Origin: a virus
Lineage: Duplodnaviria; Caudoviricetes
Length of the DNA stretch: 64,000 nucleotides
Strand: one strand, 5' to 3'
Virus record (IMG/VR): IMGVR_UViG_3300013800_000006
Coordinates: 1-64,000 of that record
The notes under the pieces were generated by a model. The model was not told the origin of the DNA and did not search any database. It saw only the letters and a list, made by a program, of their open reading frames with translations. Each line of letters opens with the position of its first letter. Positions within the stretch are counted from its first letter, which is position 1. The translations under genes and the position numbers were made by a program. This document shows positions 3,939 through 49,473 of the stretch, piece after piece.

Positions 3939-5054
3939 TTACCAGTCTCCTGTAATATCTAAAAAGCAAGTTCCAGGTTGGTTAGTAATGCAAGCAACTT
4001 TTATTGCCATATAAGTTTTATTATCAATTACAACCGATCTATCATTACTTGAAAGCGCGTAACCCGTCGCTTCAAGCGGAGCATATAACCCTGGCATTCT
4101 TCCTCTATAAACAGGACCGGTTGGTTCACCTATTTCAACCGGAAACAAATGAATACCATTGTCTGCTTGATTCGGATAAGCAGAGTTACCATATCCAAAT
4201 TGAAAAGACGGCGTTGCTAATTTGAAAAAGTTTATTCCACCTACCGCACCAGTTGAAGCTCTTGCGAGATATTGCCCTATGTAGTAAGTTGAAGATGTGT
4301 TAAAAGTAAGATAAGAAAAACTTTGATTAGAAGACTGTGTAGTCGGGCTTGAAATTGAATAACCAATAAGCATTGACGCATAACTATCATTTGCTTTTAC
4401 GCTGTTAATGTCTCCAAACGCATATCCCGCGTGAAGTGTTGAATAAGAGCTATGCCAAGCGGAAAATAGATAGAATGTTTTGTTGTTTCCAATCAGATAC
4501 CATTCTCTTGTTGCCGTGGAACTTGCATCTGATTTCTTCCAATAAACTGTGGCAATAAGGTTAGTTCCAGCATCTACAGTGGTCATCGATTCATATGCTG
4601 AAACTGTAGCATATTGCGCCTGAGTATCATCAATTCTGAGATAAAACTGGGTTCCAGCAGGAGCACGATAGACACTTTTATTGGTTCCTGTATATACTCT
4701 AGTCCATCCAAGCGGTGCTATCTTACAAGTGATCGTTCCGGTCGCTGAACCATCTGCTGTAGTTAAATCAATAGTAAATGTTGTAGAGGATGTGATTGCC
4801 TTTATTCTAAATTCGTTATTAAATATGCTTTCGTTTGCTCCAGAAATAACGATAATATCAGTAGCCGTTAGATTATGAGTAGTAGATGTTGTAATCGTTG
4901 CAACATTAGACAAAACTGAAATAGAACTGACAGTTTTTGAATTATATCCAGTCACTAAGCAAGCATACAAAATACTATCCAAATAACCGATTGTGCCTGC
5001 CATCGGACTTGCTGAGGCTTGCTGGTAGTTGAAATTTTTTATTGACACTGCCAT
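3939..5054 (-). CDS. Tail fibre/tail-tip protein, paralogue B (371 aa)
   Basis: LDSILYACLVTGY...GWTRVYTGTNKSVYR...FYLRIDD motif seen in phage tail proteins; paralogous to 5059..6189. Confidence 0.6.
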   Translation of the reverse strand: MAVSIKNFNYQQASASPMAGTIGYLDSILYACLVTGYNSKTVSSISVLSNVATITTSTTHNLTATDIIVISGANESIFNNEFRIKAITSSTTFTIDLTTADGSATGTITCKIAPLGWTRVYTGTNKSVYRAPAGTQFYLRIDDTQAQYATVSAYESMTTVDAGTNLIATVYWKKSDASSTATREWYLIGNNKTFYLFSAWHSSYSTLHAGYAFGDINSVKANDSYASMLIGYSISSPTTQSSNQSFSYLTFNTSSTYYIGQYLARASTGAVGGINFFKLATPSFQFGYGNSAYPNQADNGIHLFPVEIGEPTGPVYRGRMPGLYAPLEATGYALSSNDRSVVIDNKTYMAIKVACITNQPGTCFLDITGDW

Positions 5055-5058
5055 TGTT

Positions 5059-6189
5059 TTAACTCCAGTCCGATTGATCTAGGGAAAACCAGAAATTACC
5101 TAACTGATTTATTCCGGCTGATGATCCACTCCTAAAAGCAATATAAGTTTTTCCATCTACAACAATACTACGATCTTTAGATACATAAGCACCATTTGTA
5201 AACTCCATAGGTGAAAATAATCCAGGCATTTTTCCACGCCAAGCATTTACACTGTCATCAGATATACAAATAGACGCTAAATGGACAGCATTATCGGTTG
5301 GTGATGGAAAAGGTCGTACTGATGATGTCCCGAAACCCATTGTTGCTTGTCTTGAAATACAATAAAGCGAAAAAGGAACACTTCCACCAACCCAAGATGT
5401 TGAACGTGCTAATGTCATTCCAGTATTAACGCCTGTTGTGCTTAACATACCTGTGTTTGCTATAGAATTGATTGGATCAGTAGCAGAATGTCCACCCAAA
5501 GCACAACCCCACGGATCATTTGAACGAAATGGTTTAATATCACCAAAAAAATACAAAGCTAACCCAAGTGGAAAAGAAACATTTGTTTCTATCATTAAAT
5601 AAAAACATTTTGAAGTACCGACAATAAACCATTGATGAGTTACTGTATTTGCAACTGTACTTTTACACCAATAAGTATCGGGGCTCTTTCCTGTTCCAAC
5701 ATCAACAGTTGTCATTACTTCATACATATTAACCAATGCGGTTTTTGTAGGCGTATCATCTACTCTTAAATAAAGTTTAGATCCAGTTATATCAGATGGT
5801 CTATACACACTTTTATTAGTTATAGTAAACTCTCGTGACCAATTTAAAGGGGCTATTTTACAAGATAGTGAACCAGTAGCAGGAGTTGTTGTCGTAGTAA
5901 TCGCAAATGTAAAACTGGTAGATGTAGGAACAGAATCAATTGTAAACTCATCATTAAAAACAGATTCATTAGCACCTGAGATTAGAATTGTATCGTAAAC
6001 TTGATAACCATGAGGTGCTGAAGTAGCAACGGTAGCAACATTAGACGCAACTGTTATCGAACTAATTGCTTGAGTGTTAAAACCTGTAACCAAAGCCGCA
6101 TACAAAATTGCATCTAATTTACCTACCTCTCCTGTAAGTTGCGGCGCGTTGGTTTGATCGTAACTGATAACTTTAATCGGAACACCCAT
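5059..6189 (-). CDS. Tail fibre/tail-tip protein, paralogue A (376 aa)
   Basis: LDAILYAALVTGF...NWSREFTITNKSVYR...LYLRVDD; collinear with 3939..5054 over the whole length. Confidence 0.6.
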   Translation of the reverse strand: MGVPIKVISYDQTNAPQLTGEVGKLDAILYAALVTGFNTQAISSITVASNVATVATSAPHGYQVYDTILISGANESVFNDEFTIDSVPTSTSFTFAITTTTTPATGSLSCKIAPLNWSREFTITNKSVYRPSDITGSKLYLRVDDTPTKTALVNMYEVMTTVDVGTGKSPDTYWCKSTVANTVTHQWFIVGTSKCFYLMIETNVSFPLGLALYFFGDIKPFRSNDPWGCALGGHSATDPINSIANTGMLSTTGVNTGMTLARSTSWVGGSVPFSLYCISRQATMGFGTSSVRPFPSPTDNAVHLASICISDDSVNAWRGKMPGLFSPMEFTNGAYVSKDRSIVVDGKTYIAFRSGSSAGINQLGNFWFSLDQSDWS

Positions 6190-44155: not shown

Positions 44156-44626
44156 TCAACGATAATCCAAATAATCTGGGTTGACCACGCTTTTCCCAAC
44201 AGCCTTCCCCCACGCCAACAATTGACCTTCATCGTATCGCACCGGGGGGTTGCGACCTCCACCCAATACCTGTTTAGGTAATCCTAACTTCCTCACCCAG
44301 TGATAGACGGTCATCGTGGTAATATCAAACATTCGACACACTTGCCGAATCGTTAAAAGTGTCCCGTTATGACAGTCTCGCCATTGACTATCATCTACCT
44401 CCATAAACTCAACCCGGTTATGAACCGTTTTCTTCACCTTAGTAGCGAGCACTGCCGCAAGGGGAGGTGCCTTTTCAAAATCCTGATCCTCTAATATCCT
44501 CTGCTCCACCCGGATCGGAGCGGCTGGCTTCTGATTCAAAATCTGTCTCAAATCACGTCTAATCATCATGGCACCTGAATATATTTGTGTACTTGAATAT
44601 TGAGTCGGTATCCAAACGTCTGACAA
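44156..44626 (-). CDS. Helix-turn-helix (excisionase/MerR-like) DNA-binding protein
   Basis: LLTIRQVCRMFDITTMTVYHWVRKLGLP...VRYD. Confidence 0.7.
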   Translation of the reverse strand: MSDVWIPTQYSSTQIYSGAMMIRRDLRQILNQKPAAPIRVEQRILEDQDFEKAPPLAAVLATKVKKTVHNRVEFMEVDDSQWRDCHNGTLLTIRQVCRMFDITTMTVYHWVRKLGLPKQVLGGGRNPPVRYDEGQLLAWGKAVGKSVVNPDYLDYR

Positions 44627-45192
44627 CTATGAATAGCCGCTTTTAAGTTTTCTGCGTAATGATCATCCCAGCAAGGTCCTACCCAAATGTTAGAGTTACG
44701 TGGCTTCGCCACACCTACGGGCAACCCATCGGTATCGACCTTATCTGCTTCTAATACATATTTCCAACAAAAAGCCTTCTCCGAAATAATGGGTTGGACT
44801 TTCCCCGTTTTAGGTGAACATACAATCATACACCGTTCTAAGAATGGAATAATTTGAGGATGACACACGGCACCACTGGTTTCTATCTGAATCTTCCAAT
44901 TAAATCCAAGAGTGTTGATCAACTGACCCACTTGTCCTTGACGTAACGGTTCCCCTCCCGTAATGACCAATAACCGATGACTCAACGCTTGTAAGTGTTC
45001 CACCAATTCGTCACAGTCAACCCGGTCCCCCGATGCGTACTCCGTATCACAAAATCCACAACGCAGTACACAACCGCTCAATCGAAGAAATACAGCCGGG
45101 TATCCGGTTAGTGGACCTTCTCCCTGAATGGTCTCAAATAAAGAATTGACAATCAGACCGTCTTCCATCCCCACAATCGGTTGATTATTCAT
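44566..45192 (-). CDS. queE: 7-carboxy-7-deazaguanine synthase (radical SAM)
   Basis: SLFETIQGEG, AVFLRLSGCVLRCGFCDT (CX3CX2C), VITGGEPL, IETSG, IVCSPK, QVHKY. Confidence 0.9.
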   Translation of the reverse strand: MNNQPIVGMEDGLIVNSLFETIQGEGPLTGYPAVFLRLSGCVLRCGFCDTEYASGDRVDCDELVEHLQALSHRLLVITGGEPLRQGQVGQLINTLGFNWKIQIETSGAVCHPQIIPFLERCMIVCSPKTGKVQPIISEKAFCWKYVLEADKVDTDGLPVGVAKPRNSNIWVGPCWDDHYAENLKAAIHSCQTFGYRLNIQVHKYIQVP

Positions 45193-45677
45193 ATTGAGAC
45201 CTCTGCAGAACTACTCTCAGTTTCTTCCCAGCGTACAGCCACACAAAATAGCCCACTCGGCAACCAGCCGTTCAGCCAAGTCATTAGGCAGATGCTCAAG
45301 TTTTCAGAGGTCGGTTCATTGTCCATCAATACGAGTCCATCTATCACTTCAGCGAATGCTCCGTCTTGTTCAGTTTCAAATAGTTCAAATGGTCCCACCA
45401 GTTTTGATGTGTATGGGGCTTGTTTGAGGAGTAAAGGCACTAATGGATCATGCCGGTCTAAGATCATTTTATGATCTAGTAATTCCAAGCAGGTTTTAAA
45501 GCGTTTGAGATGATTAAAATCTAATACCATTCCATTGACAAGTGACCCGGAACAGCCTACAGAAATGGCAATACGCCCACTGTGTCCGTGTAAATGCCGA
45601 CACTGGCACGGGGGCACTTGCTGATTCCACAAGCGATGCCCGTATACTAGATTAAATACTTTGGTGATAGATAACAT
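45189..45677 (-). CDS. queD: 6-carboxy-5,6,7,8-tetrahydropterin synthase
   Basis: YGHRL, CRHLHGHS, GMVLDF, LDH, PTSENL, EET motifs; GGAG before ATG 45677. Confidence 0.88.
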   Translation of the reverse strand: MLSITKVFNLVYGHRLWNQQVPPCQCRHLHGHSGRIAISVGCSGSLVNGMVLDFNHLKRFKTCLELLDHKMILDRHDPLVPLLLKQAPYTSKLVGPFELFETEQDGAFAEVIDGLVLMDNEPTSENLSICLMTWLNGWLPSGLFCVAVRWEETESSSAEVSI

Positions 45678-45706
45678 CAATGAAAACTCCATGGGTGGAA
45701 GTCGTT

Positions 45707-45735: not shown

Positions 45736-45856
45736 GCAAGGCGTTAGTAGAAATATTATAAAAATCTTGGAAATGGAAATGGTGAAATAAAAGAGGCCAT
45801 GACGCCTGCGGCGTCATTCTACCACTCGGTTTAACGGTTGAAGCGAGTACCCCGTG

Positions 45857-46058
45857 TTTGATTTTATGAGAAGTATAGTGATTATAAAGTTAAAGTTATG
45901 GAAGGCGTAGTAGGTGGAAATGAAAATGAAAATGGCACCATTTATTTTAAATCAAACTCAAAATCGAAATCAAACTCAAAATGGAATCCGGCTCTAGTAT
46001 TAAGTATTTGATTTTATGGGAATTATAGTGATTATAAAGTTATGGTTATGGAAGGCGT
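45857..46058 (+). repeat. 52-bp direct repeat x2 (45857..45908, 46007..46058) around hexamer microrepeats
   Basis: 48/52 identity, offset 150 bp; GAAAAT and AAATCG/AAACTC hexamers between the copies. Confidence 0.85.
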
Positions 46059-46484
46059 GGTGAGTTGAGATTGGGAGGAGGGTTTGCAGTATTACTAACC
46101 GTTAGTGTCAGCGATGTTTGAAAAACGTCACCCAGCCGTACCCATACAGTGCATTATTCGATGATCATCGAAGCATGTGATTGATTTTTAAAGTAAATTA
46201 ATCAAACAACATGTGACAATCTTTGTCACTGTAACAATAACGATACATAAAATATTATTCATTAGTACAATCAATCACTTATGTCATTACATAAATATCC
46301 GTGTTATGTAATTACACTATTTAATACGATATGAATTAATGAATTAAAAAACTTTTTAAATTAATTACTCAATAACAACAAACACTTAGCTTAATATTGT
46401 GGTTGCTTAGGTTAAGCAATGGTAAGCTTGGCACTAACACTGCATTATCATACGCAACGCAACACAAGTTAAACTGAAAAGGGG

Positions 46485-46619
46485 ATGGCATTGAAAGCTG
46501 CAATCGTGTTCTGTATTTTAGTTATTACAAGCGTATATGCGATGGATTGTTTTAAAGATATGATGGTTGGCATTGTTGACCACCATCATCAACAAATTGA
46601 ACTGGCAAGCAACCAGTAA
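46485..46619 (+). CDS. Small hydrophobic peptide (44 aa), not in the ORF track
   Basis: MALKAAIVFCILVITSVYAMDCFKDMMVGIVDHHHQQIELASNQ; AAGGGG before ATG; stop abuts the RBS of the next gene. Confidence 0.45.
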   Translation: MALKAAIVFCILVITSVYAMDCFKDMMVGIVDHHHQQIELASNQ

Positions 46620-46630
46620 AGGTGACGACA

Positions 46631-46945
46631 ATGAAACTTAACATAGTGAGTATCTCAAGGCAGTATAATCAGGCGATAACCTTACCGGCTAAAGAGGTTC
46701 GTTATGTCCGAGGGTTGCTTCCGTTAGGGAAAATAGTAGCTTCCCGGCAGGGCTATATCGGTAATACCATGAATGGCTGGAGTGCGTTTGAGGTTATTGT
46801 TAAAGATAAAAACGGGTTGTGGGTTTGTTACCCACAACCAACACAAATAGGTGATTATGCATCATATCGCCTGTTGAGTGACTCACCAGAATTTGTCAAG
46901 AAAACAGCAAGTAATTTGCTTACAATAAGTAAGCAAATTAGATAG
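46631..46945 (+). CDS. Hypothetical early protein
   Basis: AGGTG RBS before ATG 46631; followed by repeat copy 1. Confidence 0.65.
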   Translation: MKLNIVSISRQYNQAITLPAKEVRYVRGLLPLGKIVASRQGYIGNTMNGWSAFEVIVKDKNGLWVCYPQPTQIGDYASYRLLSDSPEFVKKTASNLLTISKQIR

Positions 46946-46951
46946 TAGACA

Positions 46952-47028
46952 AGCCATGGGTGGCTTACCCTATTAGTGCTTATTCTAAGCACTAATAGGA
47001 GCGTACTAGAGTCCGCTTAGTAGACTCT
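46952..47028 (+). repeat. Three-hairpin intergenic element, copy 1
   Basis: AGCC-ATGGGT-GGCT; CCTATTAGTGCTTA-TTC-TAAGCACTAATAGG; AGAGTC-CGCTTAGTA-GACTCT. Confidence 0.95.
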
Positions 47029-47051
47029 AAACAAACTGGGAGTTGAAGAAC

Positions 47052-47468
47052 ATGAGCATGAAACTATACGCATTGTGTCAAAATTCTTACACATTCGGAC
47101 AGACTGGTGTTGGTTGCCATGTGGCGACCAGCGACGAGGAAATCGTGGCATCGGCGACGCTGTGGGATAACAATAGGATATGGGAGGTTTACGAGGAAAA
47201 AGAGAAGTTCATGCGTGTGCTTCAACCCACCCTGCACGTACTGGCTGGTACTCAATGGGTTGCCATGCCCATTGAGCCTACCGTCCATGGGTTCGACGGG
47301 ATGGTAAAAATCCTACGGGATAGGACGCCATCGCAGGCATACATTCAAGCCGGTGAAGGCGTGCGGTTTGTGTTCAGTGATACCGTACCAGTGTTGGCAA
47401 AGGGTCATACTGACTATGACCCGGCAAACCTTAACCACCAGCGCGCCCTATTAGGAGGTAAGGCTTGA
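47052..47468 (+). CDS. Hypothetical early protein (cassette 1)
   Basis: GGGAG RBS; bounded by repeat copies 1 and 2. Confidence 0.65.
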   Translation: MSMKLYALCQNSYTFGQTGVGCHVATSDEEIVASATLWDNNRIWEVYEEKEKFMRVLQPTLHVLAGTQWVAMPIEPTVHGFDGMVKILRDRTPSQAYIQAGEGVRFVFSDTVPVLAKGHTDYDPANLNHQRALLGGKA

Positions 47469-47473
47469 TCTAC

Positions 47474-47553
47474 AGCCATGGATGGCTTACCCTATTAGTG
47501 CTTATTCTAAGCACTAATAGGAGCGTATCGAGTACCCGCTTAGTAGGTACTCT
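47474..47553 (+). repeat. Three-hairpin intergenic element, copy 2
   Basis: AGCC-ATGGAT-GGCT; same 14-bp stem as copy 1; GAGTACC-CGCTTAGTA-GGTACTC. Confidence 0.95.
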
Positions 47554-47574
47554 CAATAAAGTGGAGTGAATACG

Positions 47575-48339
47575 ATGAATGCTAATCAAAAAGCCGCTGT
47601 TACTATGATGCTTTCCATCATGGCGGAAGGGACTTGCCAAGAGTTTGGCAAATATAGTAAGGATAGTGTCGAGTACTTCACCGCCAAGCTAGAACAAGTG
47701 CAATCAGGCAGGATAGGACATGGTGGAAACCCCCACGGGTATTTCATCATCGGGTTGTCCCCTAGTAGCAAGCGTGGACAGGAAAATGCCGCCCGTCAAT
47801 TCCGCTTTGCCTTGAGCAAGGGAATGACTAACAAAGCGCACCTTGCTTGCCGTGGCTTGGGTGACACCGGCACCGAGTCAGCAATCAATGCTGGTGCGTT
47901 CTTCAGCTATCCAAAACAGAATAGCCGTCTTGGCGACACGGCCATGCGCCGAGTCGCGCATGGCATCGCATCCGATGCCCGGAAGGGAGAAGATGTAGGA
48001 CGGAAAACCAGTGCACTATTTCTCGCGCTAACAGACGCGGACGCTGCGGAAGCGGCACTAGCTTTTATCCGTAAGGGTGCGGAAAAAATCCGCACGGCGC
48101 TAAATATTGAGCATGACACGTGGTTGGATCAACTCATAGAGTCCATCCCCCAAATGGGGGAACAGGAAACACAAGACGAAAACTTGAATCACTGGATCAA
48201 TGGTATCTTAGCAGAGCTGCCAGACATCAAACCCGATGATGAACGGATGCTCGTCGAATCCGTTAAGCGGGTATCTGCTAAAAAGAACCCCAAACCCGTC
48301 AAAAGTAAGCTAACCTTGGAGAAAACTAAGGCAGCATAA
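47575..48339 (+). CDS. Hypothetical early protein (cassette 2, ~254 aa)
   Basis: GGAG RBS; visibly GC-richer than neighbours; basic C-terminus. Confidence 0.7.
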   Translation: MNANQKAAVTMMLSIMAEGTCQEFGKYSKDSVEYFTAKLEQVQSGRIGHGGNPHGYFIIGLSPSSKRGQENAARQFRFALSKGMTNKAHLACRGLGDTGTESAINAGAFFSYPKQNSRLGDTAMRRVAHGIASDARKGEDVGRKTSALFLALTDADAAEAALAFIRKGAEKIRTALNIEHDTWLDQLIESIPQMGEQETQDENLNHWINGILAELPDIKPDDERMLVESVKRVSAKKNPKPVKSKLTLEKTKAA

Positions 48340-48346
48340 TAGAACA

Positions 48347-48425
48347 AGCCATGGATGGCTTACCTATTAATGCTTAACATAAGCACTAATAGGAGCGTAT
48401 CGAGTACCCGCTTAGTAGGTACTCT
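48347..48425 (+). repeat. Three-hairpin intergenic element, copy 3
   Basis: AGCC-ATGGAT-GGCT; CCTATTAATGCTTA-ACA-TAAGCACTAATAGG; GAGTACC-CGCTTAGTA-GGTACTC. Confidence 0.95.
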
Positions 48426-48446
48426 CATGGTTAGGAGTTTAAGATT

Positions 48447-48725
48447 ATGTTTTACTATTTTTATGTAGAACAAGAAGACAAACGTATTGCCTTTTGCGTA
48501 TCTGAGACGGAACTTGATGTTGGTTATATAGTACCACTGGACAAAGAAATAATAATTGCCCAAGGGAATCTACCTGATTCTAATGAATACCTCATTAAGT
48601 CAAAATGCTTTAAAAAAACATTAGAGCTAGCATGTCAGCTAGCGGGTTACTCACTAGAGCCTTATAATATAACCCCATTAGAGTATGTGAGCACAGAAGA
48701 ATTTGTCTATTGGTTTAACTCTTAA
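48447..48725 (+). CDS. Hypothetical early protein (cassette 3)
   Basis: AGGAG RBS; AT-rich; bounded by copies 3 and 4. Confidence 0.65.
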   Translation: MFYYFYVEQEDKRIAFCVSETELDVGYIVPLDKEIIIAQGNLPDSNEYLIKSKCFKKTLELACQLAGYSLEPYNITPLEYVSTEEFVYWFNS

Positions 48726-48732
48726 TAGAATT

Positions 48733-48809
48733 AGCCATGGACGGCTTACCCTATAATTGCTTAGATTAAGCAATTATAGGAGCGTACTAGAGTCCGCTTA
48801 GTAGACTCT
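48733..48809 (+). repeat. Three-hairpin intergenic element, copy 4
   Basis: AGCC-ATGGAC-GGCT; CCTATAATTGCTTA-GAT-TAAGCAATTATAGG (compensatory changes); AGAGTC-CGCTTAGTA-GACTCT. Confidence 0.95.
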
Positions 48810-48833
48810 TACCAAAAACGGGAGTTTAAAAAC

Positions 48834-49028
48834 ATGTTACAAATTGATCCAACTCGCCATTATCCTACATTTTTAGTGATCGTAAAGGATTATTTTGACC
48901 ACATTCAAGTCAAAGAGTCTAATAAGTATTTTACAAACGAGAAGCAGGCTAGAAACTATGCACAAAATAATACGCGGTTCCTGCGTGCTGGTACATACTC
49001 AAAGGGACAAGTGCATGTATTAGGTTAA
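48834..49028 (+). CDS. Hypothetical early protein (cassette 4, 64 aa)
   Basis: GGGAG RBS; bounded by copies 4 and 5. Confidence 0.6.
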   Translation: MLQIDPTRHYPTFLVIVKDYFDHIQVKESNKYFTNEKQARNYAQNNTRFLRAGTYSKGQVHVLG

Positions 49029-49035
49029 TCTACCA

Positions 49036-49114
49036 AGCCAAGGATGGCGTACCTATAATCGCTTAATCTAAGCGCTTATAGGAGCGTATCGAGTACCCGC
49101 TTAGTAGGTACTCT
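49036..49114 (+). repeat. Three-hairpin intergenic element, copy 5
   Basis: GCC-AAGGAT-GGC; CCTATAATCGCTTA-ATC-TAAGCGCTTATAGG; GAGTACC-CGCTTAGTA-GGTACTC. Confidence 0.95.
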
Positions 49115-49134
49115 CATGGTTAGGAAATAATACT

Positions 49135-49473
49135 ATGAACAATCAATATTATTTGTGTGGTAAAGTCTATTTTGAAGCCATCAAACCGATGTTTAAACAG
49201 ATGTTGATTTATATCCCAAGTCATTGGGACGATTTTTGTAACACCTTTTATATCTCTATCCCTGATGATGAACCAACACAAAACTATTTAGAAGGATGGC
49301 AAGGATTAAGAGAGGAAATCCTTACTAAATTGTTTAGATTGAATATCCTCGTGTACCAGAATGAAATCTATGAAATCTTCCGTAGATTAGGCGAACAATC
49401 ATTACTTTTAATGTTAATCCATCAACACCATGCTTATTGTAAGCAGGTAGGTGACACCATTTTAGAATTATAA
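49135..49473 (+). CDS. Hypothetical early protein (112 aa)
   Basis: AGGA RBS after copy 5. Confidence 0.65.
   Translation: MNNQYYLCGKVYFEAIKPMFKQMLIYIPSHWDDFCNTFYISIPDDEPTQNYLEGWQGLREEILTKLFRLNILVYQNEIYEIFRRLGEQSLLLMLIHQHHAYCKQVGDTILEL

Follow-up and report, generated by a model that had tools for sequence, protein, structure and literature searches.

What is the purpose of a short three-hairpin element that is repeated between the early genes of an uncultured phage, and what might be recognised in the first of its hairpins? The locus lies in IMG/VR virus record IMGVR_UViG_3300013800_000006, a record of 75.9 kb rated approximately 51% complete, of which the first 64 kb (64,000 nucleotides) constitute the stretch analysed here and referred to as the window. 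An element of approximately 83 nt occurs five times in the window on the plus strand, each time between the stop codon of the upstream gene and the ribosome site of the next, and upon folding each copy presents three hairpins, of which hairpin 1 is the first module. The comparative evidence indicates that hairpin 1 is a real, selected hairpin with a G+C stem of 3–4 bp closed by a C-G pair and a hexaloop A-N-G-G-A-N. It may serve as a docking site for a protein of the CsrA/RsmA family, either the host's own or a phage protein whose gene would lie in the part of the genome beyond the record, a reading that is plausible but falls somewhat short of probable. The five copies, with the predicted probability that hairpin 1 forms, P(formed), and the score against a covariance model (CM) of the element, are as follows.

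46950–47031, plus strand: spacer copy 1, with hairpin 1 at 46952–46965 (AGCC-ATGGGT-GGCT, GGG in place of GGA; P(formed) 1.0), hairpin 2 at 46969–46999, the linker GGAGCGTA and hairpin 3 at 47008–47028; structure supported by covariation; followed by the Shine-Dalgarno (SD) sequence GGGAG at 47038–47042 and the ATG at 47052 of a 138-aa gene; CM 98.2 bits.
47472–47554, plus strand: spacer copy 2, with hairpin 1 at 47474–47487 (AGCC-ATGGAT-GGCT; P(formed) 0.97), hairpin 2 at 47491–47521 and hairpin 3 at 47530–47552; followed by the ATG at 47575 of a 254-aa gene; CM 105.9 bits.
48345–48426, plus strand: spacer copy 3, with hairpin 1 at 48347–48360 (AGCC-ATGGAT-GGCT; P(formed) approximately 0 in context), hairpin 2 at 48363–48393 and hairpin 3 at 48402–48424; followed by the ATG at 48447 of a 92-aa gene; CM 98.9 bits.
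48731–48812, plus strand: spacer copy 4, with hairpin 1 at 48733–48746 (AGCC-ATGGAC-GGCT; P(formed) near 0), hairpin 2 at 48750–48780 and hairpin 3 at 48789–48809; followed by the ATG at 48834 of a 64-aa gene; CM 96.1 bits.
49034–49115, plus strand: spacer copy 5, with hairpin 1 at 49036–49049 (AGCC-AAGGAT-GGCG), hairpin 2 at 49052–49082 and hairpin 3 at 49091–49113; followed by the ATG at 49135 of a 112-aa gene; CM 94.2 bits.

The CM was built from 19 copies of the element. Its matches in the window are limited to the five listed, and a strict pattern search of the 75.9-kb record returned the same five. Every copy is oriented like its genes. The original prediction, made from the letters of the sequence, had described the five loops as ATGGGT, ATGGAT, ATGGAT, ATGGAC and AAGGAT closed by GCC/GGC, and they are read directly as such at 46953–46964, 47475–47486, 48348–48359, 48734–48745 and 49037–49048. 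Four of the five conform to C-ANGGAN-G, as had been stated, with copy 1 deviating through its GGG.

Further copies were gathered by a pattern scan of viral contigs, a protein-anchored search, a pattern scan of metagenome contigs and an inspection of contigs carrying homologues of the 254-aa protein. In the metagenome scan, 53 single matches were treated as chance and only the contigs with multiple matches (L021, L024 and L065) were retained as relatives. By identity of the 254-aa protein, which spans 52–88% overall, the relatives form three groups: 79–88% (L007, L021/L074/L075, L024 and L065), 60–67% (L076, L077, L080, L081 and L083) and 52–55% (L078, L079, L084 and L085). The hairpin 1 set drawn from this material comprises 29 hairpins on 12 contigs. 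As the original prediction would have it, GGA is conserved in the further copies (28 of 29 hairpins), and this includes relatives whose spacers are otherwise unalignable. The core C-A-N-G-G-A-N-G is upheld by A1 and G3G4 in 29/29 hairpins, A5 in 28/29 and an invariant closing C-G pair; except in one copy, variation is confined to N2 (U21/A5/G2/C1) and N6 (U20/C7/A2/G0). Changes on both sides have occurred at three of the four stem pairs (AGCC/GGCU, GGCC/GGCC, GGGC/GCCC), and the covariation score of 0.365 compares with 0.109 in shuffles and is reached by 0/500 of them, a count that overstates independence because three of the 29 hairpins (L78orf, L84orf and L85b) were chosen by a motif search requiring pairing and because copies from the same genome are related.

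Since hairpin 1 is invariant within the close family, the distant groups are needed to test it. There the stem reads GGCC/GGCC or GGGC/GCCC and the loop is still AUGGAU or AUGGAC. A synteny alignment of the spacer 3' of the 254-aa gene, drawn from 10 contigs in three diverged groups, has a mean identity of 48%. The start codon aside, columns without any change are concentrated in two places, the C, A, GGA, G and C of hairpin 1 and the hairpin 2 apex. This pattern is taken here as a phylogenetic footprint, which argues that hairpin 1 is a selected hairpin with a sequence-specific loop. The hairpin starts 5–7 nt past the upstream stop codon, or 10–11 nt in the diverged relatives, and is marginally stable: of the 19 copies that were scored correctly, 11 have a partition-function P(formed) above 0.9. 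The short hairpin displays GGA in its loop in 28/29 copies, 4/5 of those in the window among them, and in most copies this GGA is predicted to be unpaired.

The core of the RsmE/CsrA consensus is C-ANGGAN-G (CANGGANG). In Salmonella, the motif recovered in vivo by cross-linking and immunoprecipitation (CLIP) is AUGGA in apical loops, or more generally [A/C]UGGA (PMC5207318). The commonest loop of the phage hairpins, AUGGAU, is this CLIP motif, and the prevalence of U at N2 matches [A/C]UGGA (PMC5207318). The fit to the CsrA/RsmE consensus extends to the bases favoured where the loop varies: U at N2, and at N6 U ahead of C, with no G. That N6 is never G (0/29) is a mild argument that the GGAU preference of CsrA fits better than a mimic of the Shine-Dalgarno sequence, which would call for GGAG.

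Hairpin 2 is composed of a 14-bp helix and a triloop (31 nt) with an invariant apex GCUUA-NNN-UAAGC. Hairpin 3 has a helix of 6–7 bp and an invariant loop CGCUUAGUA (DNA: CGCTTAGTA), and the linker GGAGCGT is invariant as well. In an alignment of 18 close copies, double changes are seen at seven pairs of the 14-bp and 7-bp helices of hairpins 2 and 3; 97% of the cells are paired versus 27–46% when the partner is slid, and the covariation lies above all 500 shuffles. For hairpin 2 alone, 98% of the cells are paired. The linker GAGCG (46998–47007) and the loop CGCUU of hairpin 3 (47014–47018; same columns in all copies) could form a 4–5-bp H-type pseudoknot with sterically feasible loops, for which covariation provides no test because both segments are invariant.

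The apex of hairpin 2 is a signature of this operon. GCTTA-N3-TAAGC occurs seven times in 75.9 kb versus 0.1 expected, and all occurrences are within 46.4–49.5 kb, in the 5' leader, the five repeats and the 3' end of the last gene. We know of no recogniser of this apex. The sites beyond the repeats, together with a variant hairpin, are listed here.

46403–46419, plus strand: lone apex of the hairpin 2 type, TTGCTTA-GGT-TAAGCAA, within the leader that precedes the 44-aa gene, the first of the early genes.
46912–46940, plus strand: variant hairpin TAATTTGCTTAC-AATAA-GTAAGCAAATTA, which falls within the 107-aa gene at its 3' end, immediately 5' of copy 1.
49431–49445, plus strand: apex of the hairpin 2 type, TGCTTA-TTG-TAAGCA, within the gene that closes the operon, at its 3' end.

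At the 3' base of hairpin 2, TAGGAGCGT (AGGAG) is invariant in 5/5 window copies and in 18/18 copies of the near-identical family. The original prediction had noted this conservation, together with the lack of a start codon at ribosome-site distance, to which a TTG in the copy of one relative is the single exception, and a further GGA in each true ribosome site (GGGAG, TGGAG, AGGAG, GGGAG and AGGAA in the five window copies); these observations stand. As a candidate second site for a CsrA dimer, however, AGGAG is buried in the base of the 14-bp helix.

The spacers differ between the groups of relatives. In L077 and L083 (63–67%), all but one intergenic spacer hold a single hairpin with the hairpin 2 apex and a covarying lower stem, and hairpin 1 is retained only once, 3' of the 254-aa gene; L080 follows the same pattern as far as its error-prone sequence is readable. 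L076 carries one full cassette and one truncated copy (5779–5828), the latter consisting of a hairpin 1 (GGCC-AGGGAT-GGCT) and a 5-bp remnant of hairpin 2, in which TAGGAG is the working ribosome site 8 nt 5' of the ATG. This use of TAGGAG suggests that the orphan AGGAG of the full cassette originated as a ribosome site. In the 52–55% group the apex is GTTTA-N4-6-TAAAC and some spacers contain sigma-70-like promoters; spacers of this promoter-plus-hairpin type are found only in the most distant relatives L078, L084 and L085. Since both the 63–67% and the 52–55% spacers keep hairpin-2-type hairpins, hairpin 2 is regarded here as the family-wide punctuation element. It was the lineage of the window that joined hairpins 1, 2 and 3 into a single cassette and then spread it. 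As most spacers of L077 and L083 are without hairpin 1, CsrA cannot account for the whole cassette.

Gene content also changes at the spacers. Between the window, L007, L021/L074, L024 and L065, which share more than 80% identity, the presence or absence of genes (107, 138, 92 and approximately 123 aa) falls exactly at them, and some copies are mosaic, with mismatched arms in hairpin 3 (G1a and L24a). Hybrid arms of hairpin 3 are seen in two copies, L007 5392–5472 and L024 216–298. The gene swaps and hybrid arms point to recombination between repeats.

Two other hairpins of the relatives may be recorded at this point. A sigma-70-like promoter (TTGACA, 16 nt, TAGAAT or TAAAAT) at L084 945–975, L085 630–660 and L078 ~4905–4935 is embedded in a palindrome GCTTGACA-A[T/A/C]GGAA-TGTCAAGC, which has another ANGGAA centre with a variable second position and could be an operator or a read-through hairpin. 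Canonical terminators in the relatives are limited to array ends, and a bidirectional terminator AAAAAGCCGG-ATGGGT-CCGGCTTTT (L077 8173–8200, L083 4853–4880, L080 ~6525 and L081 ~7000) has the same loop as hairpin 1 of window copy 1, possibly by coincidence.

Within the repeat, a sigma-70 promoter and an intrinsic terminator were both considered. No -35/-10 is conserved in the aligned copies and a promoter scan found none common to them; nor does a U-tract or T-run follow any of the three hairpins in the alignment. Both candidates were rejected for this lack of conservation, and a role at the level of RNA, inside one long transcript, is favoured as a result. A comparison with the Rfam covariance models produced no match in 44–64 kb at E ≤ 1, save a chance snoRNA match elsewhere.

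If CsrA is the ligand, a dimer on the loop of hairpin 1 could extend to the GGA in the ribosome site that follows, brought closer by the folding of hairpins 2 and 3. Translation of each early gene would then hinge on free CsrA, and five strong sites per abundant early transcript would divert CsrA from its host targets. Hairpins 2 and 3 appear to act as punctuation of the long transcript, serving processing, stability or insulation from Rho and from neighbouring cistrons, and at the DNA level they also appear to offer homology for exchanging single-gene cassettes. It is possible, but rather doubtful, that a virulent phage has wired its whole takeover operon into the host Csr/Rsm system by means of a high-affinity CsrA hairpin ahead of each early cistron, such that early translation reads the metabolic state and the early mRNA acts as a CsrA sponge.

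A number of observations weigh against CsrA as the ligand. As the original prediction already conceded, the outer A/U flanks of (A/U)CANGGANG(U/A) are unmatched, with C or G on both sides in all copies (GCC...GGC, GGGC...GCCC), and copy 1 carries GGG instead of GGA. Competing pairings are predicted to prevail over hairpin 1 in copies 3 and 4 of the window (P near 0); in copy 3 the 5' arm has an alternative partner, CAUGGUU, beside the ribosome site. Because the hairpin starts 5–7 nt past the stop codon, terminating ribosomes would melt it and displace a bound protein. The nearest second GGA, in the AGGAG 39 nt downstream, has its GG paired in hairpin 2, and the GGA of the ribosome site is approximately 83 nt away in sequence, though spatially nearer if hairpins 2 and 3 fold. 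Work in E. coli places the bridging range of a CsrA dimer at 10–63 nt, which leaves the ribosome-site GGA outside it by distance along the sequence. The function of the spacer across the family requires no hairpin 1, since only one spacer keeps it in the 63–67% relatives, and the three invariant features represented by the hairpin 2 apex, the linker and the hairpin 3 loop are left unexplained by CsrA. Mismatches in the helices are distributed as six G.U versus seven A.C, which gives no direct sign that RNA of the plus strand folds rather than DNA. No csrA (PF02599) was identified in the 75.9-kb record searched, to which the full genome would add ~72 kb, or in a 20-kb relative. CsrA is not known from several large phyla, and the host may be without it. 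Some 1.2% of phage genomes nevertheless carry csrA alleles, among them phages whose hosts have no csrA on the chromosome (PMC7366521), and for this reason a phage-borne ligand is possible.

Three other explanations of hairpin 1 compete with CsrA. It is unlikely, though worth serious consideration, that the GGA loop and AGGAG serve as a decoy or standby site that pairs with the anti-Shine-Dalgarno end of 16S rRNA and keeps 30S subunits, or ribosomes in termination, close to the cistron that follows. Such an arrangement would enhance translation along the operon, or couple it from gene to gene, with no need of a regulator protein. The loop and 3' arm read AAGGAUGG or AUGGAUGG, one mismatch off the Shine-Dalgarno core AAGGAGG, hairpin 1 starts within 5–11 nt of the upstream stop codon in every copy, and the truncated copy of L076 has a working ribosome site at the base of hairpin 2. 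A role in translation initiation is also thought to apply to the start-associated sequence (SAS) of Cluster K mycobacteriophages (GGGATAGGAGCCC), which shares ATAGGAGC with the cassette (PMC3203893). Such pairing would, however, be better served by a G at loop position 6, which never occurs in 29 copies, and it assigns no obvious role to the invariant A1; furthermore, approximately 85 nt with two stable helices separate the loop from the real start, and the GG of AGGAG is itself paired in hairpin 2. At a similarly low level of probability, hairpin 1 may bind an RNA-binding protein or endoribonuclease of the phage, or some other host factor, and resemble a CsrA site incidentally. A joint processing signal would in that case be made up of hairpin 1, the apex of hairpin 2, the linker GGAGCGU and the loop of hairpin 3, and cleavage would divide the early transcript into stable mRNAs of one cistron each, after the manner of RNase III in the early region of T7. 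This would give a use to the three further invariant motifs and to the clustering of GCTTA-N3-TAAGC at the gene boundaries, leader and end of this operon, a T7-like layout. Hairpin 2 also matches the minimal E. coli RNase III substrate in size: that substrate is 34 nt long and needs 11 bp between loop and cut (PMC1540722), and 14-bp hairpin 2 provides at least these 11 bp, which makes it a candidate site by size.

Since hairpin 1 is found 3' of the 254-aa gene in all three groups of relatives, it could be tied to the product of that gene. That protein, however, has no family or fold match, no family match to a RegB-like or RNase III gene was found in the 75.9-kb record, RNase III itself requires no conserved sequence, and a chance agreement of four fixed loop positions, the closing pair and the right preferences at the free positions is improbable. 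Less likely still is a hairpin 1 that does nothing by itself and is merely carried along in a recombination cassette whose repeats are homogenised by gene conversion and serve mainly as homology for shuffling single-gene cassettes, or, in a variant of the idea, a DNA-level element (cruciform or protein-binding) as in the promoter early stem-loop (PeSL) elements, which provide a precedent (PMC2839356). The differences in gene content exactly at the spacers, the mosaic copies G1a and L24a, and the counts of G.U and A.C, which give no strand signal, all agree with it. It is harder to reconcile with the persistence of hairpin 1 where the remaining spacer is unalignable: neither gene conversion nor hitch-hiking yields compensatory stem changes with a fixed loop, and the loop, one copy excepted, varies at N2 and N6 alone. 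In the window family, moreover, the spacers lack a conserved promoter or U-tract terminator. The CsrA reading is retained here as the working model, at the tentative level given at the outset.

Does the phage have a host that could supply CsrA? No DNA match to the record was found among cultured phages, and capsid, terminase and SbcC yielded only matches below 33% identity to phages of many phyla. No tRNA genes were found, and a search of a protein atlas with a tail protein gave no match. A scan of species genomes with the 254-aa family produced one 36-residue match in a Competibacter metagenome-assembled genome of 65% GC, which was judged to be chance. One relative comes from a sample labelled HEND19, which we take to be part of a sewage survey. 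A Bacteroidota host is made less likely by -35/-10 promoters of canonical form, by strong Shine-Dalgarno sites and by the intrinsic terminators that close the arrays in the relatives; these features decide little else on the matter. The phage lineage is uncultured but widespread: a variant of the 254-aa protein, P0005, is by itself indexed in 44 blocks of an assembly collection, and 24 contigs with P0005 were read.

From near-identical contigs of 147.9 and 148.0 kb among the relatives, the full genome is estimated at approximately 148 kb. The minus strand of the window encodes a large terminase, portal, major head protein and a tape-measure protein of 3367 aa, along with an SbcC-like nuclease, a primase and a class II ribonucleotide reductase laden with inteins. 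The 3367-aa open reading frame (ORF) had prompted consideration of promoter hairpins for an N4-like virion RNA polymerase; these were excluded, as the ORF is a tape-measure protein accompanied by head and tail genes of siphovirus type, and the phage is accordingly described as large and siphovirus-like, not N4-like. Several restriction-type sites are depleted in the 75.9-kb record (GAATTC 2 vs 24.6 expected, GGATCC 1 vs 9.5, CTGCAG 2 vs 9.5), and CTAG and ACGT are likewise strongly under-represented, probably reflecting restriction avoidance. HIP1 (GCGATCGC) is absent from the same record. The coding strand switches at approximately 46.4 kb, where the early operon follows.

46485–49473, plus strand: early operon of seven small genes (44, 107, 138, 254, 92, 64 and 112 aa), none with a PHROG or Pfam family.
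46485–46619, plus strand: first early gene, 44 aa.
47575–48339, plus strand: 254-aa early gene.

The 254-aa protein has 19 homologues with a lowest identity of 52%. It matched no Pfam or PHROG family and no PDB fold at E ≤ 0.001, and its AlphaFold model is all-helical with low confidence (pLDDT 66). Two direct repeats of 68 nt (45854–45921 and 46004–46071; 85% identity, 150 nt apart) are situated in the divergent intergenic region upstream of the operon, are promoter-like on both strands and are also present in L007. Adjoining the operon on the minus strand (44566–45692) are queD (PTPS) and a queE-like radical-SAM gene, labelled from precomputed Pfam matches on identical genes in relatives, which point to 7-deazaguanine chemistry. 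These neighbours, together with hairpin 3 and an A-rich tail, had suggested a PreQ1-type riboswitch; it was rejected, given that there was no Rfam match, that the A-rich tail lacks conservation and that the genes following the element are unrelated.

CsrA/Rsm is a major post-transcriptional switch of bacteria that governs carbon flow, motility, biofilm and virulence. In the literature, no phage transcript was found described as a CsrA target or sponge, and none for the early operon of a lytic phage. Should hairpin 1 bind CsrA, no earlier phage operon would have been shown to respond to this regulator or to deplete it, and C-ANGGAN-G hairpins at early-gene boundaries would be a simple signature to seek in other phages. 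A sponge would reprogramme post-transcriptional control in the host, including CsrA-controlled defences such as CRISPR-Cas, which is under Rsm regulation in Serratia (PMC8450108). Even without CsrA, the cassette is a clean case of conserved, covarying and modular RNA punctuation that marks the points at which single genes are swapped.

The cassette may finally be compared with four known systems. It resembles the CsrA/RsmA/RsmE hairpins of the hcnA leader and of the CsrB, RsmY and RsmZ repeats in having a short, C-G-closed hairpin with an ANGGAN loop, several sites per RNA and one more GGA where ribosomes bind the gene under control, and AUGGA is the commonest form, as in the Salmonella CLIP data (PMC5207318). 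In contrast, the outer A/U flanks are absent from the phage element, and each site is placed just 3' of a stop codon in the early operon of a lytic phage; whereas the sites of the small RNAs are packed into 100–400 nt, those of the phage are spread 0.3–0.9 kb apart along an mRNA.

The early region of T7 carries RNase III sites in its leader and at gene boundaries. Like those sites (R0.3–R1.3), which resemble one another in sequence, the cassettes are structured elements in the leader and at every gene boundary of an early transcript made by the host polymerase. The T7 sites, however, are irregular hairpins of approximately 20 bp with an internal loop, whereas the cassette has a perfect 14-bp hairpin between two smaller ones.

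The original prediction held that no repeated phage leader of this kind had been described. This was too strong, given the PeSLs (PMC2839356) and the SAS with its extended form, ESAS (PMC3203893); the claim holds insofar as neither carries a CsrA-type loop. The PeSLs of T4-like phages (PMC2839356, PMC4122927) are also repeated intergenic cassettes of approximately 50–100 bp that flank small ORFan early genes, coincide with single-gene indels between close relatives and include some mosaic copies. A PeSL, however, combines a sigma-70 early promoter with a terminator stem-loop, whereas the window spacers have three hairpins with conserved loops and lack a conserved -35/-10 or U-tract. SAS/ESAS (PMC3203893) are repeats of one orientation located just 5' of the start codons of unrelated genes, with a suspected role in translation. 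An ESAS is an inverted repeat with a variable spacer that precedes the SAS, a conserved purine-rich 13-mer, and the part of the SAS found here corresponds to the invariant hairpin 2 base and linker. The SAS is a working ribosome site, whereas in the cassette AGGAG and the real ribosome site are separate, with AGGAG approximately 45 nt further 5'; only the truncated copy of L076 departs from this. SAS/ESAS also have no equivalents of hairpin 1 or hairpin 3, and the hosts and phages are unrelated. Thus, CsrA hairpins and repeated phage leader cassettes were both already known, and what is new here is a repeated phage leader with a loop of the CsrA type.

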